The position numbers and the translations under genes were made by a program. A DNA stretch of 64,000 nucleotides from a virus. Positions 20,015-50,597 of this stretch are shown here, piece by piece. The DNA lies in the IMG/VR virus record IMGVR_UViG_3300025413_001414, positions 14,699 through 78,698 of that record; one strand, written 5' to 3'. Every line of letters starts with the position of its first letter. Within the stretch, counting starts at the first letter, position 1. Under the pieces are notes generated by a model. The model did not search any database, was not told the DNA's origin, and saw only the letters and a list, made by a program, of their open reading frames with translations.

Positions 20015-21742
20015 ATGCAAAACTATACATTTTTATATAATGATACAAAGTTAGACAAAAACAAACTAAAAGAGGATTGGATTAAGAAAAATGTCCCATC
20101 TTTATACAAAGATGTTATATCATTCTCAAACATGATAAACTTTGAGTATTCCAAATTTTCACAATTATTATATCATTATAAAATAAATAAGACTGAATTG
20201 CCAATATGTGACTATTGCAAAAAAGAAAATAAAAGATTTATTGGATTTGATTATGGATATAAACTAGGATGTAGTAGACATTGTGCAATTTTACTAACAA
20301 GACCAAAGTCAAATGAAACTAGGAGATTGAACACATTAGAAAAATATGGAGTTGAACACACCACCCAACTAAATTCAGTTAAAGAAAAAATAAAAAAAAC
20401 CAACATTAAAAAGTATGGAGTAGAACATGCTTCACAGAATGAAAATATTAAAAATTCAATTAAAAAAACAAACAATATACGATATGGTACTGATTTGCCT
20501 CTTCAAAATTTACAAATTAAGAATAAAATGATTGATAACTTTATAGAAAAGTATGGTGTCAGTAACCCAATTTTACTAGATTCAGTCAAAAATAAAATTA
20601 AAAAAAATAATTTGAAAAAATATGGATGTGAATGGCACATATCTTCTGATATTATCAAACAAAAAATAAAAAATTCACAATATCTTCATAATTATAAAAA
20701 TATTGTTTCTAATTATGGTAAAATCGATGGATTAAATATAATATCATATGAAAATAATATAGTAAAATTTTATTGTGAAAAGTGTAACAATGAGTTTGAA
20801 TCAAATTATGTACATCTTTATAATAGACATATCAGAGATAAATCTAATATTTGTACTATTTGCAATCCACTAAATAACAAAACATCTAATGGACAAAAAG
20901 AAATTATAAATTTTTTAAAGGAACTAAGAATAAATATTACAGTAAATGATAGAAAAATAATAAATCCATACGAAATAGACATTTATCTAAAAGATTATAA
21001 TTTAGGTATTGAGTTTAACGGCATATATTGGCACTCTGAAATAAACAAGGATAATGGCTACCATTATGATAAGTATAATAGATGCACACAAAAAGGTATT
21101 GGACTAATTCAAATTTGGGAAGATGATTGGACATATAAAAAGGATATAATAAAGTCAGTGATAAAAAGTAGGATAAATAAGAATTCATCAATTGGTGCTA
21201 GATTATGTATCATAAAAGTAGTTTCAAATGAAGATTCTAAAATTTTTCTAAATGAAAATCATATTCAGGGATGGTGTATTTCAAAATATAGATATGGATT
21301 ATATTTTGAAAATAATCTAGTTAGTATATTAACAATTTCAAATAGTAGAAAAAATATTACTAAAAATGCAAAAATCGGAGAATATGAAATAGTTAGATTT
21401 TGTAATAAAATTGGAACAAATATCATTGGATCTTTATCAAAACTTTGGAAGTTTTTTGTAAATGAAATAAATCCGGTAAGAGTTATTTCATATTGTGATA
21501 ATGATCTATTTAGTGGTAAATCCTATTATAAAATAGGTATGAAATTAGATAGTATGTCATTTAATTATTGGTGGTGTGATGGTGATAAAAGACAAAATAG
21601 ATGGAATTTCAGAAAAGATAAATTAATAAGTGAAGGATATGATAGAGAAAAAACTGAATCAGAAATAATGATAGAAAGAGGATGGTATAAATGTTATGGA
21701 TCTGGTAATAAAAAATTTATTTGGAATAAAGATAATATTTAA
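20015..21742 (+). mobile_element. Free-standing KYG-repeat / Vsr-like putative homing endonuclease
   Basis: EKYGVE repeats, EIDIYL..GIEFNGIYWHS, IWEDDW. Confidence 0.75.
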
Positions 21743-22513: not shown

Positions 22514-22733
22514 AGAAATGACATGCTAAATACACCATACCCTTCATTTCTCTCGTTCTTTGTTACACAAAGATACGACAAATTTCCGAAACCACCAAAT
22601 AAAAATTCCCCTCGTATAGAGAGGAATTCTTATACCAAAACAAACAGTTATGAGACTAAAGTGACGTGCCAGATACACTATACCTTTCACTTTGTAAATG
22701 ACGTGCCAGATACACTATACCTTTCATTTACAA
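22514..22733 (-). ncRNA. Small RNA(s) built from three copies of a conserved hairpin
   Basis: 28-bp core repeat at 22662-89 and 22699-726 (identical) and 22519-46 (23/28); covarying closing stems; promoters at 22736 and 22568; terminator 22601-30. Confidence 0.6.
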
Positions 22734-22774
22734 TACAAAGATACAGCAAGATTTTGTAACCACCAAATTTATTT

Positions 22775-27269: not shown

Positions 27270-28445
27270 TCATATAATTTCTTTAAATTTTTCAATTTCT
27301 AATCTCTTTATTTCCTTACCTAATTCAGCACCTTTGAATCCTTGTTTCATTAACTCTTCAGCTGAAACAGATGGTTTGTATTTTATAAAAGCCAAATGAG
27401 TTGCATCATTTATTTGATTTATTTTATACCAATCTAAGATAACTTCATCACTAACTCTCGCAACTGTTCTCTTTTTATACATTTCTGTAACATCATCTAC
27501 TTTAAAATCTAAAAGAGATATCAAGAAAACTATCCTTCTAGCCATATCCACTTCAATTTTACAATCTTGAACTAACTTATCTAATATATTTTTGTTTTCT
27601 TTTAACAAATTAGCTAAGTAAACTTCTAAATATTTAGAATCTCTGATATCAGTATTGATTTTAAAGCCAGGTAGAATTTCTTCCCATAATCCGAATTTAG
27701 TCAATAGATTTAAATATTCTGAAAAATCTTTGGCTTGTTTGAAAGCTTTTTTAAGCTCATCCCAAATTCTCTCTTGTGATACATCATCTTTTGGACTTAT
27801 ACCTCTTAATCTATTATCTTTTCTTATGGCTTGATCCGTTTTAGAATCAATCTTACCACCAGTTCTTGTGGCAAACCTCAAAATTCTAAGGATTCTTAGA
27901 CGATCTTCTATAAATCTCTTATTAGCATCACCTACTGCTCTAACTATACCATTTTTTATATCATCAACACCACCAACTAAATCAACTATCTGTTTGTTTT
28001 TAATGTCATAGAATAGAGCATTCATAGTCAGGTCTCTTCTATTACAATCATCTTCAATAGTTACATCACCACCTACTTCAACTTTTTTTTCATCGCCTTT
28101 CGTATCTCTACCACCAGAAATATCCCTTCTATAAGAAGCAATTTCATAACCGCCTGGTTCATCTTTTGTATAGACTCTTAATACACCAAAATTTTTACCT
28201 TGTTCATCAGAAATATTGAATTCTTTTAATATTTCTTTTGATTCATTAGGAAGAGCATTTGTTACCAAATCATAATCTTTTGGTTCTATACCTTGTATGA
28301 AATCTCTAACTGCACCACCGACTAAAAAGATGTCTTTACCTGCTTTAATATAAGCATTTGATATGTCTATAATATCATTTGGTAGAGGAATTTCTGTTGA
28401 GATTTTATTCTCATTTATAAATTGTCTATATCTTTTAATTTTCAT
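27270..28445 (-). CDS. cca: tRNA nucleotidyltransferase (CCA-adding, class II)
   Basis: [29 protein letters not shown]. Confidence 0.88.
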
Positions 28446-30577: not shown

Positions 30578-30772
30578 AACAACAGCCCCGTTACGGTAGT
30601 AATCAGAGGTCCGGTCTTGTCGAAAGATAATTAGTCTTCCCCAGGTTAACCTGACTAAATCTGTTTAGACATCAGTGTAACGACTGACCAAAGTGAGTTT
30701 CACTACCTACAAAGCTTTAAAACGGAGTATGAATCCCGTTGCATCATTGTTGTCCTACAGATAACTGTTGTT
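30578..30772 (-). ncRNA. Unassigned ~195-nt structured RNA
   Basis: GC-elevated intergenic stretch, closing stem AACAACAGUU/GGCUGUUGUU, multiple hairpins, promoter TATATTTG at 30777-84. Confidence 0.65.
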
Positions 30773-30801
30773 ATCACAAATATACAAAATTAAATGAAAT
30801 A

Positions 30802-32482: not shown

Positions 32483-34318
32483 ATGGTATTAGATAAAAAA
32501 ATAAAAGTTAAAATAAACAAAAAAAATATTTCACATTATATTCAATTTTATCCATCAATAAAATTAAAGGATATTATTGAGGTTGATGTTGAGAATCATT
32601 TAATGAAAGGAAGTAATCAAAAAATAAACGTCCAATGTGATATCTGTGGAATTGCTAGGTTTATAAATTTCCAATCATATAATATTAATTTAAATTCTTG
32701 CCCGGAATATCCAATTTATACTTGTGATAAATGTTCTCATATTAAAATAAAAGAGTATAATAAGAAAAAATATGGCGTAGAATATTATTCAAAAACTAAG
32801 GAATATTCAGAAAAGTTTAAGAGTACAATGATTGAAAAATATGGAGTAGAATATGCTTTACAAAGTGATGAATTAAAAAAAAGGCAAATAAATAATAATT
32901 TAGAAAAATATGGTAAAAAAAATGTTTTTCAAGTTGATAAAATTAAAGATAAAATTAAAGAGTATAATAAGGAGAAATATGGTGTAGAACATTATTCAAA
33001 AACTAAGGAATATTCAGAAAAGTTTAAGAACATAATGATTGAAAAACATGGGGTTGAAAGTCCACTTCAAGGTGGGAGTGTCTCAAGAGAAAAGGCTAAA
33101 AATACGATGTTAAATAAATATGGAGTTGATGTATATGCAAAAAGTAGTGAATTTTTAGAAAAGGTTAAAATAACCAATATGAAAAAATATGGAGTTGAGT
33201 GGATAATGAAATCAGATATTTTTAAAGACAAAAGCAAAAAATCTATTAAAAATAGATATGGTGTTGATAATATAGCTAAATACGAGAAGCATAGAAAGGA
33301 TTTTAAAATATCTAACGATCCAAATTATATAAAATATGTAAACGAAGGCATATCGCTATTAAAATGTAACAAAGGACATGAATTTGAGATACCATCACAT
33401 ATCTATTATAATAGAAGTAAATATAAAATAAATTTATGTACAATGTGTAATCCAGTTGGCGAAAGTTCATCTATAAAGGAAAACGAACTATTTGATTTTA
33501 TATGCAATAACTATAGAGGAGAAATAATAAATTCATATAGGGATAAAAAGGAAATTGATATTTATTTACCAGAATTAAAATTAGGATTTGAATTTAATGG
33601 ATTATTCTGGCATTCAGAATTATATAAGGAAAAAAACTATCACTTAGATAAAACAATTTTATTTAAGGACAAAGGTATAAGCTTATTTCATGTATGGGAG
33701 GATGATTGGATGTATAAACAGGATATAGTTAAATCGATGATTTTAAACAAATTAGGTGAAACTCCTAGTAGAATATTTGCTAGAAAATGTGAAATTAAAG
33801 AAGTTACTGATAGTAAATTAGTTAGATATTTCCTAAATAAAAATCATATTCAAGGATTTGTTGGATCAAAAATAAAATTAGGGTTATATTATAATGACGA
33901 ATTAGTTAGCTTAATGACATTCGGTAATTTACGAAGATCTTTAGGCCAAAAAAGCAGTGAAGGATCATATGAATTATTAAGATTCTGCAACAAATTAAAT
34001 ACCAATGTTATTGGTGGTGCTTCTAAATTACTCAAATATTTTTTAAAATTTAATAATGTCAGGGAAATTATTAGTTATAGTGATTTAAGTAGATCTAATG
34101 GTAATATGTATCAACAATTAGGATTTAAATTACAACATAATTCTAATCCTAATTATTATTACATTATTGGTGGTATTAGAAAACATAGATTTGGATTTAG
34201 AAAAGATGAATTAGTTAAGGATGGATTTGATCCGAATAAAACTGAAATTCAAATAATGAATGAAAGAGGTTATTATAGGATTTTTGATTGTGGAATGCAA
34301 AAATGGGTATTAAATTAG
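32483..34318 (+). mobile_element. KYG-repeat / Vsr-like putative homing endonuclease
   Basis: KYGVE repeats, EIDIYLPE..GFEFNGLFWHS, VWEDDW. Confidence 0.75.
32750..33029 (+). repeat. ~70-bp near-identical internal direct repeat (207-bp offset)
   Basis: KEYNKxKYGVEyYSKTKEYSEKFK encoded twice. Confidence 0.75.
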
Positions 34319-38938: not shown

Positions 38939-39397
38939 TTAATTTTTTTCAAATAAAGAATTAATAATCTCATTTCTAATAACATCCTGATGTATGAAGT
39001 AATCCTCAAAGAAATGGACTGTAGTATCGAAATGATGAGATCCATACAATTCTTCTACTTCTAACTTTGTTAAATAACAAAAAAAGTGATTTACCGAATC
39101 TTGATCTAAGATATTATAAAAAGGTATTTCTACCTTTCTCCTATAAATATCTTTGTCGGATACTCTCTTATTAATTCTCTGTAAATCTTGTATTTCTTCT
39201 TCTGTTAATTTTTTACCAATGTAAGGCTTAGTCAGATTTAAAAAAGATTTTAATTCATACATATATTTTTTATAATCGGTGATAACTTCAACTTTTTTAT
39301 CGACTATTTCAGTCACATTATACCAATCATCTTGTTCAAAAAAGATGCCCCAATGTGCATCATATGTCTTTATACATTTTACTTTCATATTATTCAA
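38939..39397 (-). CDS. Hypothetical with C-terminal RNEIINSLF tag
   Basis: ORF. Confidence 0.55.
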   Translation of the reverse strand: MNNMKVKCIKTYDAHWGIFFEQDDWYNVTEIVDKKVEVITDYKKYMYELKSFLNLTKPYIGKKLTEEEIQDLQRINKRVSDKDIYRRKVEIPFYNILDQDSVNHFFCYLTKLEVEELYGSHHFDTTVHFFEDYFIHQDVIRNEIINSLFEKN

Positions 39398-39773
39398 AGT
39401 CAGCTATTGGTATTTCTTTAGCCAAATCAGACCTGGTTTTTTTAGGTTTAGGCTTATAAACCATATTTAAGGCACTATATTTTATATCTTCATTTTGAAC
39501 CACTTTACTTGATTTTAAAATATCTTGTAGTATTTTAGGATCCGGATTTTTATGAAGATACAAGGCTATATCTAATATCATATTTTGAGTATCCTTATGT
39601 CGTATTTTATCAATCTCATATCCATATTTATTAGAAAGATAGGTTACGAATCCATATGGCAAAGTATTATTACCTGATTCTATATTCTGAATAATAAGTC
39701 TATGATAGTCTATATTCATCACCAATTCTCTTGGGACTACTATAGACAAATCTTTTTGTATAAGTTCCATCAT
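39390..39773 (-). CDS. Hypothetical protein
   Basis: ORF. Confidence 0.55.
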   Translation of the reverse strand: MMELIQKDLSIVVPRELVMNIDYHRLIIQNIESGNNTLPYGFVTYLSNKYGYEIDKIRHKDTQNMILDIALYLHKNPDPKILQDILKSSKVVQNEDIKYSALNMVYKPKPKKTRSDLAKEIPIADFE

Positions 39774-39790
39774 ATTTTATATTTAATATT

Positions 39791-40013
39791 ATAGTGACGA
39801 TTATACCCGCGGTTCTGTTTTATTCTATCATTTATCTCACCTTTCGGTGGCCTATTAAGGCTGCCTCAACCCGACTATCGTTGGGAAACCGACACCCTAA
39901 GTCTGTATGAGTTGCTACTTCTTTGGTCTAACGACTGATTAGGTCTTCCAAATTAGGTTTTGTAGCCGCGAAGTTCCTCTAGCATTTGCCAGCGATAGAT
40001 CATCCATCACTAT
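39791..40013 (-). ncRNA. rnpB: Minimised RNase P RNA
   Basis: P1 AUAGUGAUGGAU/AUCGUCACUAU; P2 UCUAUC/GAUAGA; P3 CUGGCA/UGCUAG; CR-I GAGGAACUUCGCGG pairing with CR-V ACAGAACCGCGGG (P4); CACC-GAAA-GGUG; AGAUAAAUG CR-IV-like. Confidence 0.8.
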
Positions 40014-40477
40014 GTTAATATTTCTAAATTCAATTCTCTTTTAAACTTTTGTTTATACTCACCAATAAATTCCTCTAAAAGTGGGTGAATATGTGGATAT
40101 ATTTCTTCACGAATATTATCAACATCACCAATATACTCTTTGAATAATTTTAAAATTCTATTAGGTGTATTTGGTATAATATTAATTAAACATAAATAGT
40201 TTAAAACCCTTTCTTTTTTAGGATCTAATTTTTTACCACTTTTATTCCATGTGTCCATCCATTCCAATTTTAAAGACATTGCTTTAAAATCAGTAACAAC
40301 TACACTCTGCCACCAATCAGAAAATTCATTATCCCTAATCACTGGATCAAATCCAATCATCTTGGTATATTTTTCCCATATATAATCAATATTGGATCGT
40401 AAGACATATGTATCATTACAAGCCTTATGAAACATTATTGAAAATGTTAATAAGTTATCTACCTGGTCATTATTCAT
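40010..40477 (-). CDS. Hypothetical with C-terminal KRELNLEIL tag, probably leaderless
   Basis: TATATTTG at 40482-89 just upstream of ATG; stop overlaps 5' end of RNase P RNA. Confidence 0.6.
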   Translation of the reverse strand: MNNDQVDNLLTFSIMFHKACNDTYVLRSNIDYIWEKYTKMIGFDPVIRDNEFSDWWQSVVVTDFKAMSLKLEWMDTWNKSGKKLDPKKERVLNYLCLINIIPNTPNRILKLFKEYIGDVDNIREEIYPHIHPLLEEFIGEYKQKFKRELNLEILT

Positions 40478-40558
40478 ATTACAAATATACGATAAATTTA
40501 AGAAAAAAGAAAAAACAAAATCTTTAAAATTAAATATATAGATAAAATTATTTTTGAT

Positions 40559-45576: not shown

Positions 45577-47406
45577 ATGATAGTAAATGAAAAAATAAGT
45601 ATAAATGTTAATCCAAATTCTAGAATTTATTACAATTCGATTGGATATAGATGTTCTAATTTTGAGAAAATAGAAATTAGAACAATTGATCTACCAAATG
45701 GGTCTAATATTAAAATATTGGTCAGGTGTGATGTTTGTTTTATTGATCAAACAACTAAGTACAATAAATACTTGAAAAACACAAGGAATAATACTATTCT
45801 ATACACCTGCAAAAAATGTTCTTTTATAAAAAATAAAAAAACAAAATTAGAAAAATACGGAAATGAAAATTATCAGAATACAGAAAAAATAAAGAAGACA
45901 AAATTAGAAAAATACGGAGACGAAAACTATACAAATAGAATAAAAGCGAAAAATACATGTATAGAAAAATATGGAGTTGATAATGTATCAAAGTTTGATG
46001 ATATAAAGTTAACTAAAAAGAAAACAAATATTGATAATTGGGGAGTTGATAATGTTTTTAAATCTGAAGAAATTAAGAGTAAAATATCAGAATCGGTTAG
46101 AATTAAATATGGATCAGATAATTATGTTACATCAGATGATTGTAAAAATAAGTATAAAATATTCTGTGAGGAATTAGGTGTTAGTCATTATTCACAGTCT
46201 AAAGAATTTAAAGATAAATTTGAGGAAACATGTTTAGTAAGCTGGGGATATAAGACGAATTTATTAAATAATGATATAAAAAATAAGATAAAGGAGACCA
46301 ATCTTATAAAGTATGGATTTGAGTATCATATGAAAAATGCAAAATATTCAGAATTAACATCAAAAAGAATAACAGAGGGCAGAAATGATTATTATAAAGT
46401 ATTAGGATATGAATTGATAAATTATGATTTTAATAAAAAGGAATATCTACTTAAAAGTATTTCATGTGGTCATGAATTTAAAATAAATCATGATTTATTT
46501 AGAAGTAGGATAAAATATAACAACAGTTCTTGTTTGATATGCTATCCAAAAGATGGGTTAACATCAATAAAAGAATTAGAGCTTGGTAACTTTATTAAAG
46601 AAATATCAAATAATATTATATTAAACTCAAGAGACTTGATTGATGGTAAGGAAATAGATATTTATTTACCAGATCATAAGATAGGAATAGAATTTAATGG
46701 ATTATACTGGCATTCGGATGAATTTAAAGATAAATATTATCATTATAATAAAACAAAATCCTGTTTAGAAAATGGAATATCCTTAATTCATATATGGGAG
46801 GATGACTGGTTAAATAAAAAAGATATAGTTAAATCAATAATTAAAAACAGATTAGGAATAATTGATAATAGAATATATGCCAGAAAATGTAAAATTGAAA
46901 TTGTTACAAACTCAATTAGTAATAAGTTTTTAGACGAAAATCACATTCAAGGTGGGACAAATGCTTCTGTTTGTATTTCATTAAAATATGAAAATGAAAT
47001 AGTATCTATAATGACATTTGGTAAAAGAAGAATAAACTCTAAATTGAACCTGGAACTTGTTAGATTTTGTAATAAGAAAAATACATCAGTCATCGGATCG
47101 GCTTCTAAATTATTCAAACACTTTATTGAAAATAACGAATACGATAAAATAACATCATATTCAGATTTGTCCATTTTTAATGGAGATTTATATGAAAGTC
47201 TTGGATTCAAAAATGACGGCGAAACATCTTTAAATTACTATTGGAGCGATTTAAAAAGAAGATATCATAGATTTAATTTTAACAAAAAGAGACTAATAAA
47301 AATAGGATATGATCCAAATAAGACCGAAGATGAAATTATGAAGAGCATTGGATATATTAAAATATGGTCTTGTGGTCAGGTAAGGTGGATTTTTAATAAG
47401 ATATAA
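45577..47406 (+). mobile_element. KYG-repeat / Vsr-like putative homing endonuclease between topoisomerase genes
   Basis: KYG repeats, GIEFNGLYWHS, IWEDDW. Confidence 0.75.
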
Positions 47407-47813: not shown

Positions 47814-49562
47814 ATGATGAAAAAAATAGAAGATCAGTATAAAGTTTTAGATCAAATTTCACACGTATTGTTGAGGCCACAAACATATGTTGGATCAAAT
47901 AAGCCACACACCGAATCAAAATGGATAATAGAAAATGATAAAATGATTCAAAGAGAAATCACATATGTACCATCTTTTATTAAAATATTTGATGAGGTTG
48001 TCACAAATGCAATTGATGAGGCAAAAAGGAATAAAAATTTAAATAGAATTGATATAAAAATTGATTTAAAATCAAATCAAATATCAATAAAAGACAACGG
48101 AGGAATAGCCTGTGTTATACACAAGGAACAAAAAAAATATGTTCCGGAAGTCATATTTGGAATCTTAATGTCGGGATCCAATTATGATGATTCTGAAAAG
48201 AGAGATGTTGCTGGAATGAATGGATTGGGAGCTAAACTGACTAATATTTTCTCCACCGAATTTTCAGTTTCTACTTGTGATGGTAAAAATAGTTTTAAAC
48301 AAACTTTTACTGAAAATATGAGAAAGAGAACCAAACCTATTATTATAACATCCAATAAAAACCATACAGAAATATCATACATACCTGATTTGGAAAAATT
48401 TGGTCTCACCAATATTGATGAGGATAATTTTAAAATGTTAGAAAAAAGGGTTTATGATGTCGCAGCTTGTAACTCTAAATTAAAAATATATTTTAATGAT
48501 AAATTAATATCTATAAAATCCTTTGAAGATTATATCAAGTTATACACTGATACTTATTTTTATGAATCAAAAAAAGATAAATCTTGGTCTATTGGTATAG
48601 CTCCATCAGATAGTGGATTTAAACAAATTAGTTTTGCTAACTCAACTGATACATATGATGGTGGAACACATTTAGATTATGTTTTAAATCAAATAATTTC
48701 ATCCATGAGAGCTTTCTTTAATAAGAAATACAAGGTTGATATTAAACCATCTGAGTTAAAGAACCATATGTTTGTGTTTTTGGATTCAACTATTGTTAAT
48801 CCAAGCTTTTCATCACAAACAAAGGAAAAATTAATAACAGAGGTTAAAGATTTCGGATCCACATTTGAAATAAGTGATAAATTAATAAACTCTATTTTGA
48901 AATCTGAGATAGTTCAATCTGTTTTAGACTGGATTGAACAAAAGAAAAATGCTGATGAGAATAGAGCTGCTAGAGAATTAAATAAAAACTTAGCTAAAAT
49001 CAAAGTTGATAAACTAATTGATGCGAAAGGTAAGGATAGATGGAAATGTAGTCTAGCATTATTTGAGGGGGATTGTCTACACGAAGACACTCTTGTTAGA
49101 GTGATAAGAGATGGTGATATAGTAGACACTAAAATAAAAAATGCGACAACAGAAGATTTAGTTATAACACACAATAATTCAATATCAAATATTTATTCTA
49201 TTACAAAAAAGATAAAGAAAAAAGTTACAATTAAGACAAAAGAAGGTGAAGTAATATGTAGCCAAGATCACAAGTGGTTTATATATGATAAAGAAAAAAA
49301 TGAATTTTATTTTGAAATAACAAAAAATATAAATAAATCGAAACACAAATTGGTTAAAAATTACTTAGCATTTACAGAATCTCTATTAGAAATAGAGTCA
49401 AATGACGGGTTTACACTTAAATTAAAATCTGGAGAGATTATAAATACAAACCCAGATCACCAATTTGCTATTTATAATAAAATTGATAATAAATTTGAGA
49501 TGAGAAAATCAATTGATATTGATATTACTAGTAATTTTATAATAAACACCTTCAAATTATAG
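47814..49562 (+). CDS. Type II topoisomerase subunit B N-part fused to split intein N-half (from 49074)
   Basis: GHKL motifs (EVVTNAID, DNGG, GMNGLGAK); LFEGD followed by CLHEDT intein block A. Confidence 0.92.
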   Translation: MMKKIEDQYKVLDQISHVLLRPQTYVGSNKPHTESKWIIENDKMIQREITYVPSFIKIFDEVVTNAIDEAKRNKNLNRIDIKIDLKSNQISIKDNGGIACVIHKEQKKYVPEVIFGILMSGSNYDDSEKRDVAGMNGLGAKLTNIFSTEFSVSTCDGKNSFKQTFTENMRKRTKPIIITSNKNHTEISYIPDLEKFGLTNIDEDNFKMLEKRVYDVAACNSKLKIYFNDKLISIKSFEDYIKLYTDTYFYESKKDKSWSIGIAPSDSGFKQISFANSTDTYDGGTHLDYVLNQIISSMRAFFNKKYKVDIKPSELKNHMFVFLDSTIVNPSFSSQTKEKLITEVKDFGSTFEISDKLINSILKSEIVQSVLDWIEQKKNADENRAARELNKNLAKIKVDKLIDAKGKDRWKCSLALFEGDCLHEDTLVRVIRDGDIVDTKIKNATTEDLVITHNNSISNIYSITKKIKKKVTIKTKEGEVICSQDHKWFIYDKEKNEFYFEITKNINKSKHKLVKNYLAFTESLLEIESNDGFTLKLKSGEIINTNPDHQFAIYNKIDNKFEMRKSIDIDITSNFIINTFKL

Positions 49563-49599: not shown

Positions 49600-49881
49600 A
49601 GTGAATTTTTCATAAAAAAATCGAATGAAATATTTTTCTATGACTTTACAATAAAGAGTAAAAAAATAATTATAGAATATAACGGAACCTTATTTCACCC
49701 GAAAAACGAAAAATCAGATTGGTTAAATCCTTTTAATAAAATGAGCTCAAAAGAAGCCTTTATAAAACAAAAGAATAAAATAGAAATAGCTGAAAAAAAT
49801 GGATTTAAGGTTTTGGAAATCTGGTCAGACGAATCAAATAATTTAGAAAAGTGTTTAAAATTTATAAAAAATAATATATGA
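49600..49881 (+). pseudogene. Start-less Vsr/DUF559-like endonuclease remnant between intein halves
   Basis: FFYDFTIKSKKIIIEYNGTLFHP...GFKVLEIWSD; TGA overlaps ATG of next gene. Confidence 0.75.
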
Positions 49882-50597
49882 TAATAGAAAATTTTTTAGA
49901 GTTAGTAGATATAGAAGATATCATATTCAAAGATGAATATGTCAATATGGTAGATATATCAGTTGATGTAGATCAAAGCTTTTTACTATCAAATGGATTG
50001 ATATCACATAATTCAGCCTCCTCGGCTTTTAGAAAATATAGAGATACAAATACACAAGGGGCTTTCTCATTAAGAGGTAAGTTTATTAATGCCGCTGAAA
50101 TTACAAATCAAAAATTAGTTGGTAATAATGAAGTTATTAATTTAATGGGTGCTTTAGGGTTAAAACTTGGTCAGAAAGTTATTCCTGGAACATTAAGATA
50201 TGGAAGAATTTTATTCTATTGTGACCAAGACTATGATGGATATTCAATCGTTGGACTATTAATTAATTTTTTAAATAAATTTTGGCCAGAACTATTTGAG
50301 CACAATATGGTTTATAAGGTAGAAACTCCAATTGTAGTGTGTCAAAACATCAAATCAAAGAAAAAAATTCCGTTCTACTCTCAACAAGATTATAACGATT
50401 GGCTCGAAAAGTCAAATCCAAAAGAATGGGAAATTAAATATAAGAAAGGATTAGCAGCTCTTGTTGATGATGAGTATAGAGAAATTATACACAACCCTAA
50501 TTTAACCAAAATCAAAAGAGATGATATAAGTAGTGAATCTCTAAATATTTGGTTTGGTAAAGAATCTGATTTAAGGAAAACTGAATTATTAAAATGA
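49878..50597 (+). CDS. Split intein C-half (45 aa) plus topoisomerase B C-part (TOPRIM)
   Basis: VDISV...NGLISHN|SASSAF, LRGKFIN, DQDYDG, YKKGL. Confidence 0.92.
   Translation: MIIENFLELVDIEDIIFKDEYVNMVDISVDVDQSFLLSNGLISHNSASSAFRKYRDTNTQGAFSLRGKFINAAEITNQKLVGNNEVINLMGALGLKLGQKVIPGTLRYGRILFYCDQDYDGYSIVGLLINFLNKFWPELFEHNMVYKVETPIVVCQNIKSKKKIPFYSQQDYNDWLEKSNPKEWEIKYKKGLAALVDDEYREIIHNPNLTKIKRDDISSESLNIWFGKESDLRKTELLK

Follow-up and report, generated by a model that had tools for sequence, protein, structure and literature searches.

RNase P RNA, the ribozyme that trims new tRNAs, is considered a component of cells and organelles. What separates its type A form from type B is the P6 pseudoknot, formed between J5/7 and the P17 loop, together with the P15-P16-P17 arm. 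In type A enzymes the GGU of L15 pairs with the 3'-CCA of the tRNA, and P8 is the helix of the specificity domain (S-domain) that touches the catalytic domain. Laboratory deletions have demonstrated that the E. coli type A ribozyme is active without its S-domain, at a rate ~120-fold slower as compared with 25,000-fold for type B, and that this truncated ribozyme depends on P6-like pairing, whereas P18 is irrelevant (PMC5839562). Natural RNAs with a poor S-domain have been described as type T in the Thermoproteaceae (Pyrobaculum) (PMC3579882). Huge phages, for their part, carry translation parts such as tRNAs, tmRNA, aminoacyl-tRNA synthetases and CCA-adding enzymes, but RNase P RNA is absent from the RNAs reported for them. 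Rfam detected only tRNAs and tmRNA in megaphages (PMC8172020), and a full-text literature search returned no report of a virus- or phage-encoded RNase P RNA.

By sequence comparison, positions 39791-40013 (minus strand) of the 64-kb window, the whole stretch of DNA analysed here, are a homologue of rnpB, that is, a natural minimal bacterial type A RNase P RNA gene of a large phage. The window belongs to a 78.7-kb IMG/VR viral record (G000) that is rated 16% complete and carries phage-type genes, among them topoisomerase II subunits, several homing endonucleases, DNA methylases, a 5'-3' exonuclease and UvdE. The gene of ~223 nt, delimited from the P1 5' strand to the P1 3' strand by the RF00010 and homologue alignments, is intergenic: ORF 40010-40477 (minus) lies on one side, ORF 39390-39773 (minus) on the other, and 39774-40009 is the sole ORF-free stretch between the two. 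It also forms a GC island, with ~44.5% GC as against 24-30% in the surrounding sequence and 28% in the phage contig.

The Rfam model of class A bacterial RNase P RNA (RF00010, model positions 1-367) aligned end to end to 39789-40011 (minus), with P1-P5, P15-P18, CR-I, CR-IV and CR-V all aligned, and it was the best member of its clan when the gene was examined by cmscan. The initial annotation had proposed an RNase P RNA of drastically reduced size, in which the specificity domain is shrunken and CR-I is a variant, and had named a covariance-model match and compensatory changes in P1-P4 as checks. Both were obtained. The model scored 44.6 bits (E 1.1e-12 in E-value mode with 501 bases searched, ~1e-10 when scaled to the whole window), and compensatory changes in these helices were abundant among the homologues. 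However, in gathering mode Rfam gave no match in the window, because ~140 S-domain positions are replaced by ~40 nt and the score thus stays below the model's 100-bit cut-off. The single-sequence MFE fold was unremarkable (z -1.3, not significant), and the support for a structured RNA is therefore comparative and not thermodynamic.

This comparative support comes from an alignment (A3) of 16 distinct members, built with MAFFT from sequence only, in which pairs were counted against a secondary structure derived from the type A model. Of 944 cells 89.1% pair, as compared with 66% for shuffled partners and 32-42% for slid partners, and 46 of the 60 pairs change on both sides; the observed values were reached by none of 500 shuffles. 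An earlier 14-member alignment gave the same covariation picture. All elements of RNase P RNA that the initial annotation had listed were recovered on the minus strand where it had placed them. The P1 5' strand (AUAGUGAUG with an imperfect inner extension, 40001-40013), located by duplex prediction, extends over the upstream ORF's TAG stop codon (40012-40010), and the 3' strand (CGUCACUAU with its inner extension) occupies 39791-39803. In the nested P1, 40013-40005 pairs with 39799-39791. In P1, both bases change in 12 of the 13 pairs, and a long P1, its sequence differing between members, was present in 17 of 17 members tested. P2 is formed by UCUAUC (39994-39999) and GAUAGA (39824-39829), with all cells paired and three of six pairs covarying. 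The P3 hairpin CUGGC-AAAU-GCUAG (39979-39992; strands 39992-39988 and 39983-39979) is likewise 100% paired, with covariation in four of five pairs and a length that differs among members.

The P4 strands, GAGGAACUUCGCGG (39979-39966) and ACAGAACCGCGGG (39818-39806), were found as first annotated. The former combines CR-I and the P4 5' strand with its bulged U and is a variant of the bacterial GAGGAAAGUCCGGG; the latter belongs to the CR-V and P4 3' strand element ACAGAACCGCGGGU (39805-39818), placed by the RF00010 alignment and covariation. P4 is paired in 98.4% of cells and five of its eight pairs covary. The bulged U is invariant and the S:S pair beside it swaps from C-G to G-C in step. Compared with the standard helix, A67-U359 is changed to S-S and G68-C358 to U-G. 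P5 (CUAC, 39962-39965, with GUAG, 39915-39918) is 98.4% paired with three of four pairs covarying. The P6 pseudoknot, a helix absent from the initial annotation, joins AAACC in J5/7 (39956-39960) to GGUUU in the P17 loop (39886-39890); it is 98.8% paired and all five of its pairs covary.

The remainder of the S-domain is confined to 39922-39952, where P7 (UUUGG with CCAAA, 93.8% paired) encloses one short hairpin, GAC-CUAAUCA-GUC (39933-39945, 97.9% paired); both covary. From its position after the P7 5' strand and the frequent UAA(C/U) loop, we read this hairpin as a putative P8. J5/15 is GCAA (39912-39915), in which the G and the last A do not vary across the 16 sequences and the C hardly does; its adenosines correspond to E. 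coli A248, beside the cleavage site. In the P15-P16-P17 arm (39865-39911), P15 (CUCA/UGAG), P16 (GACU/AGUC) and P17 (GGG/CCC) are 81%, 82.5% and 97.9% paired and all three covary, while L15 is GGGU (39869-39872) with the GGU invariant in 16 sequences. The P18 region (39838-39861) consists of two small hairpins, GCCU-UAAU-AGGC (39861-39850) and CACC-GAAA-GGUG with a GNRA loop (39849-39838); P18 is missing in nine of 16 members and is thus dispensable in the family. CR-IV, or J18/2 (AGAUAAAUG, 39829-39837), is invariant but for one R, and its final G starts the P2 3' strand. The invariant columns include the P4 bulged U, CR-I GAGGAA, the J5/15 adenosines, L15 GGU, AGAUARAUG and CR-V ACA. The phage RNA thereby keeps P1-P7, a P8-like hairpin, P15-P17 (with P18 in some members), the P4 and P6 pseudoknots and CR-I, CR-IV and CR-V, and is without P9-P14 and CR-II/III, which form the reader of the tRNA elbow.

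The RNA is not confined to one phage. Viral contigs, most of them large (86-735 kb, many 150-735 kb), yielded more than 20 homologues, a family size that rests on pattern scans. A CR-IV-to-CR-V pattern returned 22 viral loci, of which 19 were true members, and an independent pattern of CR-I, J5/15 and L15 added at least five further members among the 120 matches listed. Members share a P4 of GAGGAA-S-U-UC with GG-S-UA, P7 with a single hairpin, and AGAUARAUG followed by AARCARRA, and they lie on large-phage contigs. With blastn, partial matches were obtained in the published genomes of uncultured huge phages of 634 kb and 735 kb, in which the full length of the RNA could be aligned; searches of GenBank phages with three other family members returned the same uncultured huge phages only, or nothing. 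For the homologues in LR745206 and LR756501, an Rfam search in E-value mode gave no match at E 0.01, and their homology is based on alignment and covariation.

The pattern of change within the family indicates purifying selection on the RNA structure across many phages, as read from the alignments. The closest relative (L021) lies on G003, a contig of 185 kb in synteny with G000, where the gene order is likewise a 154-aa ORF, the RNA and an ORF. The two RNAs are 83.6% identical, whereas the flanking DNA is 70% and 57% identical and the flanking proteins 56% and 29%. The differences between the RNAs are mostly compensatory and fall in P1, P3, P4, P15, P16 and P17, including five compensatory ones in the P15-P16-P17 arm. 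Moreover, the architecture is kept across phages whose neighbouring proteins are just 26-30% identical. In one further relative (L017:8650-9330, minus, with the same sequence in L016) an insert of ~480 nt that contains an HNH endonuclease ORF splits the RNase P RNA gene within the P17 loop, with the target GGUGUCGGUU partly duplicated at both junctions. A group I intron was considered as an explanation and set aside, as an Rfam search of the insert gave no match to one. The L017 copy has a perfect Bacteroidota promoter of its own, TTTG-N19-TATCTTTG, and a tRNA 3' end just upstream.

Among cellular RNAs, the closest likeness is to the rnpB of Bacteroidota. The CR-IV-to-CR-V phage pattern matches at least 120 contigs of species-representative bacterial genomes, nearly all of them Bacteroidota. 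These matches are ordinary full-length rnpB genes, with the canonical CR-I GAGGAAAGUCCGG wherever CR-I could be located, a comparison in which many loci are cut or have no CR-I match; no short form or rewritten P4 occurred among the bacterial matches with a locatable CR-I. The distance from CR-I to CR-IV is 227-333 nt in bacterial rnpB as compared with 115-198 nt in the phages, and four cellular Bacteroidota rnpB genes scored 182-255 bits in an Rfam check. The module AGAUAAAUG..AG..UA(N)AAACAGAA, spanning CR-IV to CR-V and including the CR-IV variant of the phage RNA, is common to Bacteroidales, Chitinophagaceae and Flavobacteriales. By this sequence likeness, the 3' module of the phage RNA is of the Bacteroidota rnpB type.

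With type A rnpB in general the phage RNA shares P1-P7 and P15-P18, the P4 and P6 pseudoknots, CR-I, CR-IV and CR-V, the bulged U in P4, J5/15 and the L15 GGU. It differs in length (223 nt versus 310-373 nt), in the loss of P9-P14 and of CR-II/III, the T-loop reader, in P4 (GAGGAA-S-U-UC with GG-S-UA versus GAGGAAAGUCC with GGCUU), in a P18 that is two small hairpins or absent, and in being virus-encoded. We assign it to type A on the bulged U in P4, on P6 with the P15-P17 arm, and on L15 GGU, J5/15 and CR-IV, an assignment made with the S-domain (P8-P14 with CR-II/III) not in its type A form and the Rfam score under the gathering cut-off.

The resemblance bears on the host. The Bacteroidota promoter motif TTTG-N17-23-TAnnTTTG occurs 16 times in the window, as compared with 6.6 +/- 2.6 expected, and mostly upstream of minus-strand genes. 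The promoter enrichment and the rnpB-like 3' module together lend support to the Bacteroidota host that the initial annotation had assumed. The host of this large uncultured phage is probably a member of the Bacteroidota, and the RNA would then be a captured and reduced rnpB of the host type.

Two described systems lack all or most of the same domain. The engineered E. coli catalytic-domain RNA (CP RPR) resembles the phage RNA in being a type A catalytic domain that has lost the S-domain; its activity needs the P6 pairing and not P18 (PMC5839562), which parallels what the phage family has kept and lost. It is, however, a laboratory deletion, whereas the phage RNAs are natural and conserved, keep P7 and a P8-like hairpin, and have an altered P4. 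Type T resembles the phage RNA in being a natural RNA of ~200 nt with the catalytic domain kept, a degenerate S-domain with a small hairpin, and a predicted P6. Its own features are an archaeal type A origin, a 3-bp P2, a shortened P15, a 2-nt P5/P15 linker, the lack of P18, and archaeal proteins (PMC3579882). The phage RNA has instead a 6-bp P2, a linker of 3-4 nt (GCAA), a bacterial P15-P17 arm with a GGU loop and bacterial conserved regions, and P18 is present in the G000 copy. Reduction of the S-domain in type T and in the phage RNA is convergent, and the two are not one family.

Neither a promoter nor a terminator of its own was seen for the RNA gene, and a sigma-70 promoter scan did no better than shuffles. 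Transcription from a host-type promoter at 40482, as the initial annotation had suggested, holds in part: a Bacteroidota-type -7 box, TATATTTG, is present at 40489-40482 (minus), upstream of ORF 40010-40477, but the -33 TTTG is 26 nt away, which is beyond the usual spacing. No terminator-like site was found between this candidate promoter and the RNA, the first one on the minus strand being at 39361-39344. With the box in place and no such site intervening, co-transcription of the RNA with the upstream ORF is plausible.

The upstream ORF (40010-40477, minus) encodes a protein of 155 aa that belongs to no Pfam family and whose place next to the RNA gene is conserved in two phage lineages. Relatives are encoded at L008:3934-4425, L023:1515-1982, L001:983-1447 and L158:1501-1965 (26-56% identity), and the C-terminus RE(L/Y)NLE(I/L)L is conserved and ends where P1 begins. 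We considered whether this protein, since it abuts the RNA gene in both lineages, might be a dedicated cofactor of the RNA, and rejected the idea for want of support. Synteny extends over the entire block, the protein also occurs in a 281-kb, 94%-complete record with no adjacent RNA gene and no match to the RNA pattern, and it is acidic (pI 5.65).

The genomic setting differs among members. At seven or more loci the RNA gene is part of an array of tRNA genes on the same strand, from which only 2-7 nt separate it; the gene of G000 is not in such an array and sits between protein genes. Neither the 78.7-kb G000 nor the 185-kb G003 yielded a tRNA gene with ARAGORN or with the Rfam tRNA model, and the same search recovered 42 tRNAs in another member's contig and four in a 483-kb phage. 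The processing of phage tRNAs, one of the roles initially proposed, accordingly has no substrate in view in this lineage. By a crude count 41 of 112 array tRNAs have an encoded CCA, 24 of these in a single array. Many tRNAs in the arrays of L004, L006, L007, L012, L013, L019 and L024 are unusually long for their type (83-92 nt). A tRNA with a CUA anticodon, of the amber suppressor type, occurs at L019:4992-5065, which hints at recoding of TAG in that phage.

The protein subunit is similarly uneven in its distribution. RnpA (PF00825, above cut-off, with the RNR motif AVDRNRIKRLMRE) is encoded in LR745206 (L025:1465-1812) and in a 483-kb, 98%-complete relative from IMG/VR (L026:1462-1806), in both cases far from the RNA gene and adjoining a gene for a ClpP-like protease. 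It was not found in 13 other records, most of which are fragments. G000 and G003 yielded none, including at the ClpP-adjacent site, where G003 (L153:1186-1530) has a highly acidic 114-aa ORF in its place. These absences of tRNA and RnpA genes are provisional, since G000 and G003 are incomplete and their CheckV estimates are mutually inconsistent. The window does encode an enzyme of the class II CCA-adding/poly(A) polymerase family (27270-28445, minus; PF01743 at 104 bits, and PF12627) 12 kb from the RNA, whose activity as one or the other NCBIfam cannot separate, and an adjoining 2H phosphoesterase (PF22547; 26373-27107, minus). Both are functions of RNA or tRNA end repair, and the phage thus does invest in RNA or tRNA end metabolism.

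We consider it likely that the phage RNA is catalytically active, a minimal ribozyme that processes pre-tRNAs together with host RnpA. Counting for this reading are the RF00010 alignment and the covariation, the tRNA-array setting and the RnpA genes of relatives, the CCA-adding-like enzyme and the phosphoesterase of the window; counting against it are the rewritten P4, the Rfam score below the cut-off, and the negative searches for tRNA genes and RnpA in G000 and G003. It also draws on the agreement between what is retained and the bench data: the loss of P9-P14 and the optional P18 match the deletion studies independently, and after the loss of the S-domain selection has kept P4, P6, L15, J5/15 and P7 with the P8-like hairpin. 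Moreover, the invariant P4 bulged U, J5/15 GCAA adenosines and L15 GGU serve substrate binding or catalysis and not merely protein binding. The RNA, probably made within an mRNA started at ~40489 and then cut out, would fold into the catalytic core and bind the acceptor stem and 3'-CCA of a pre-tRNA through L15 (GGU) and J5/15. Cleavage of the 5' leader would then follow the usual metal-ion mechanism at P4, assisted by a protein cofactor, which we assume to be host RnpA here and which could be the phage's own RnpA in the two related huge phages that encode one. In phages with tRNA arrays the RNA would mature the phage's own tRNAs, and where it abuts them RNase P cleavage of the downstream tRNA would also make the 3' end of the RNA. 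The copy in G000, from a lineage where no tRNA genes were found (G000 and G003), prompts one to ask what purpose the enzyme serves. Its natural substrate there is assumed to be host RNA, and it would most likely sustain or boost host pre-tRNA maturation during infection, beside the CCA-adding-like enzyme.

Three other explanations were weighed against this one. An active ribozyme without an S-domain would make no T-loop check, and its targets might be hairpin- or guide-defined sites with CCA-like tails in phage or host transcripts, with a role in mRNA processing or host shut-off. Such a role would suit a lineage in which no tRNA genes were found and in which the RNA gene is flanked by protein genes of what looks like an operon. 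S-domain-less ribozymes do cleave model hairpin substrates (PMC5839562), and the window has unexplained candidate small hairpin RNAs and a 195-nt structured RNA candidate. We nevertheless hold it to be rather unlikely, as most family members are inside tRNA arrays, which makes tRNA the ancestral substrate. The hairpin RNAs at 22514-22743 have no following CCA and are thus not obvious RNase P model substrates, and no candidate substrate was identified.

Catalysis would be unneeded altogether if the RNA acted as a decoy, binding host RnpA or competing with host P RNA and so throttling host tRNA maturation. Competition for host RnpA had been raised in the initial annotation and is possible in itself, with no RnpA of the phage's own found in G000 or G003 and with the best-conserved module (CR-IV, J2/4, CR-V and P2-P3) being the protein-binding face and Bacteroidota rnpB-like. 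It fits poorly, however, with the conserved substrate-binding and catalytic nucleotides: L15 GGU, the J5/15 adenosines, the P4 bulge, P6 and P15-P17 are equally strictly conserved or covarying although irrelevant to protein binding. A phage without tRNA genes would also starve its own translation by such means, and relatives carry the RNA gene in tRNA arrays, two of them encoding RnpA as well. We therefore judge a decoy improbable. That the gene is instead a decaying relic of a captured host rnpB, non-functional in the tRNA-less lineage, appears very improbable. The G000 copy has lost the tRNA-array context and an HNH endonuclease ORF breaks up the gene of one relative, yet the RNA is far closer to that of L021 than are the flanking genes (83.6% versus 57-70%), the differences are mostly compensatory with all core motifs intact, and the same architecture is maintained where neighbouring proteins have diverged to 26-30% identity.

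One further reading is offered tentatively, and we regard it as unlikely. A hybrid RNase P of phage RNA and host RnpA, working without the tRNA-elbow check, might be selected for a job other than routine tRNA trimming in the lineage where no tRNA genes were found. This could be hairpin- or guide-defined cuts in phage or host transcripts. Alternatively, with the CCA-adding-like enzyme and the 2H phosphoesterase, it could rescue the maturation of host tRNAs that are damaged or atypical, in answer to tRNA-targeting defences.

As a pre-tRNA processing enzyme, the phage RNA would extend the translation repertoire of huge phages to tRNA 5' maturation, sometimes with both subunits, and would represent a natural minimisation of the type A enzyme. 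A compact and probably protein-assisted ribozyme of ~200-220 nt may be of use for structural and engineering work. The Rfam result for megaphages (PMC8172020) fits with phage RNase P RNA genes scoring below threshold, and such genes are consequently missed by current pipelines.

Several other features of the window were observed. An ORF-free RNA candidate of ~200 nt (30578-30784, minus) lies just after a TATATTTG box, has a long terminal stem and an MFE z of -2.55, and gave no credible match in Rfam. The three hairpins at 22514-22743 (minus) have a common 22-nt loop core and differing closing stems, with a TATCTTTG promoter box ahead of every one. The topoisomerase II large subunit is apparently split into two plus-strand ORFs, the main body at 47814-49562 and TOPRIM_C at 49878-50597, and three paralogous homing endonucleases of ~600 aa (phrog_3339) are encoded on the same strand at 20015-21742, 32483-34318 and 45577-47406.
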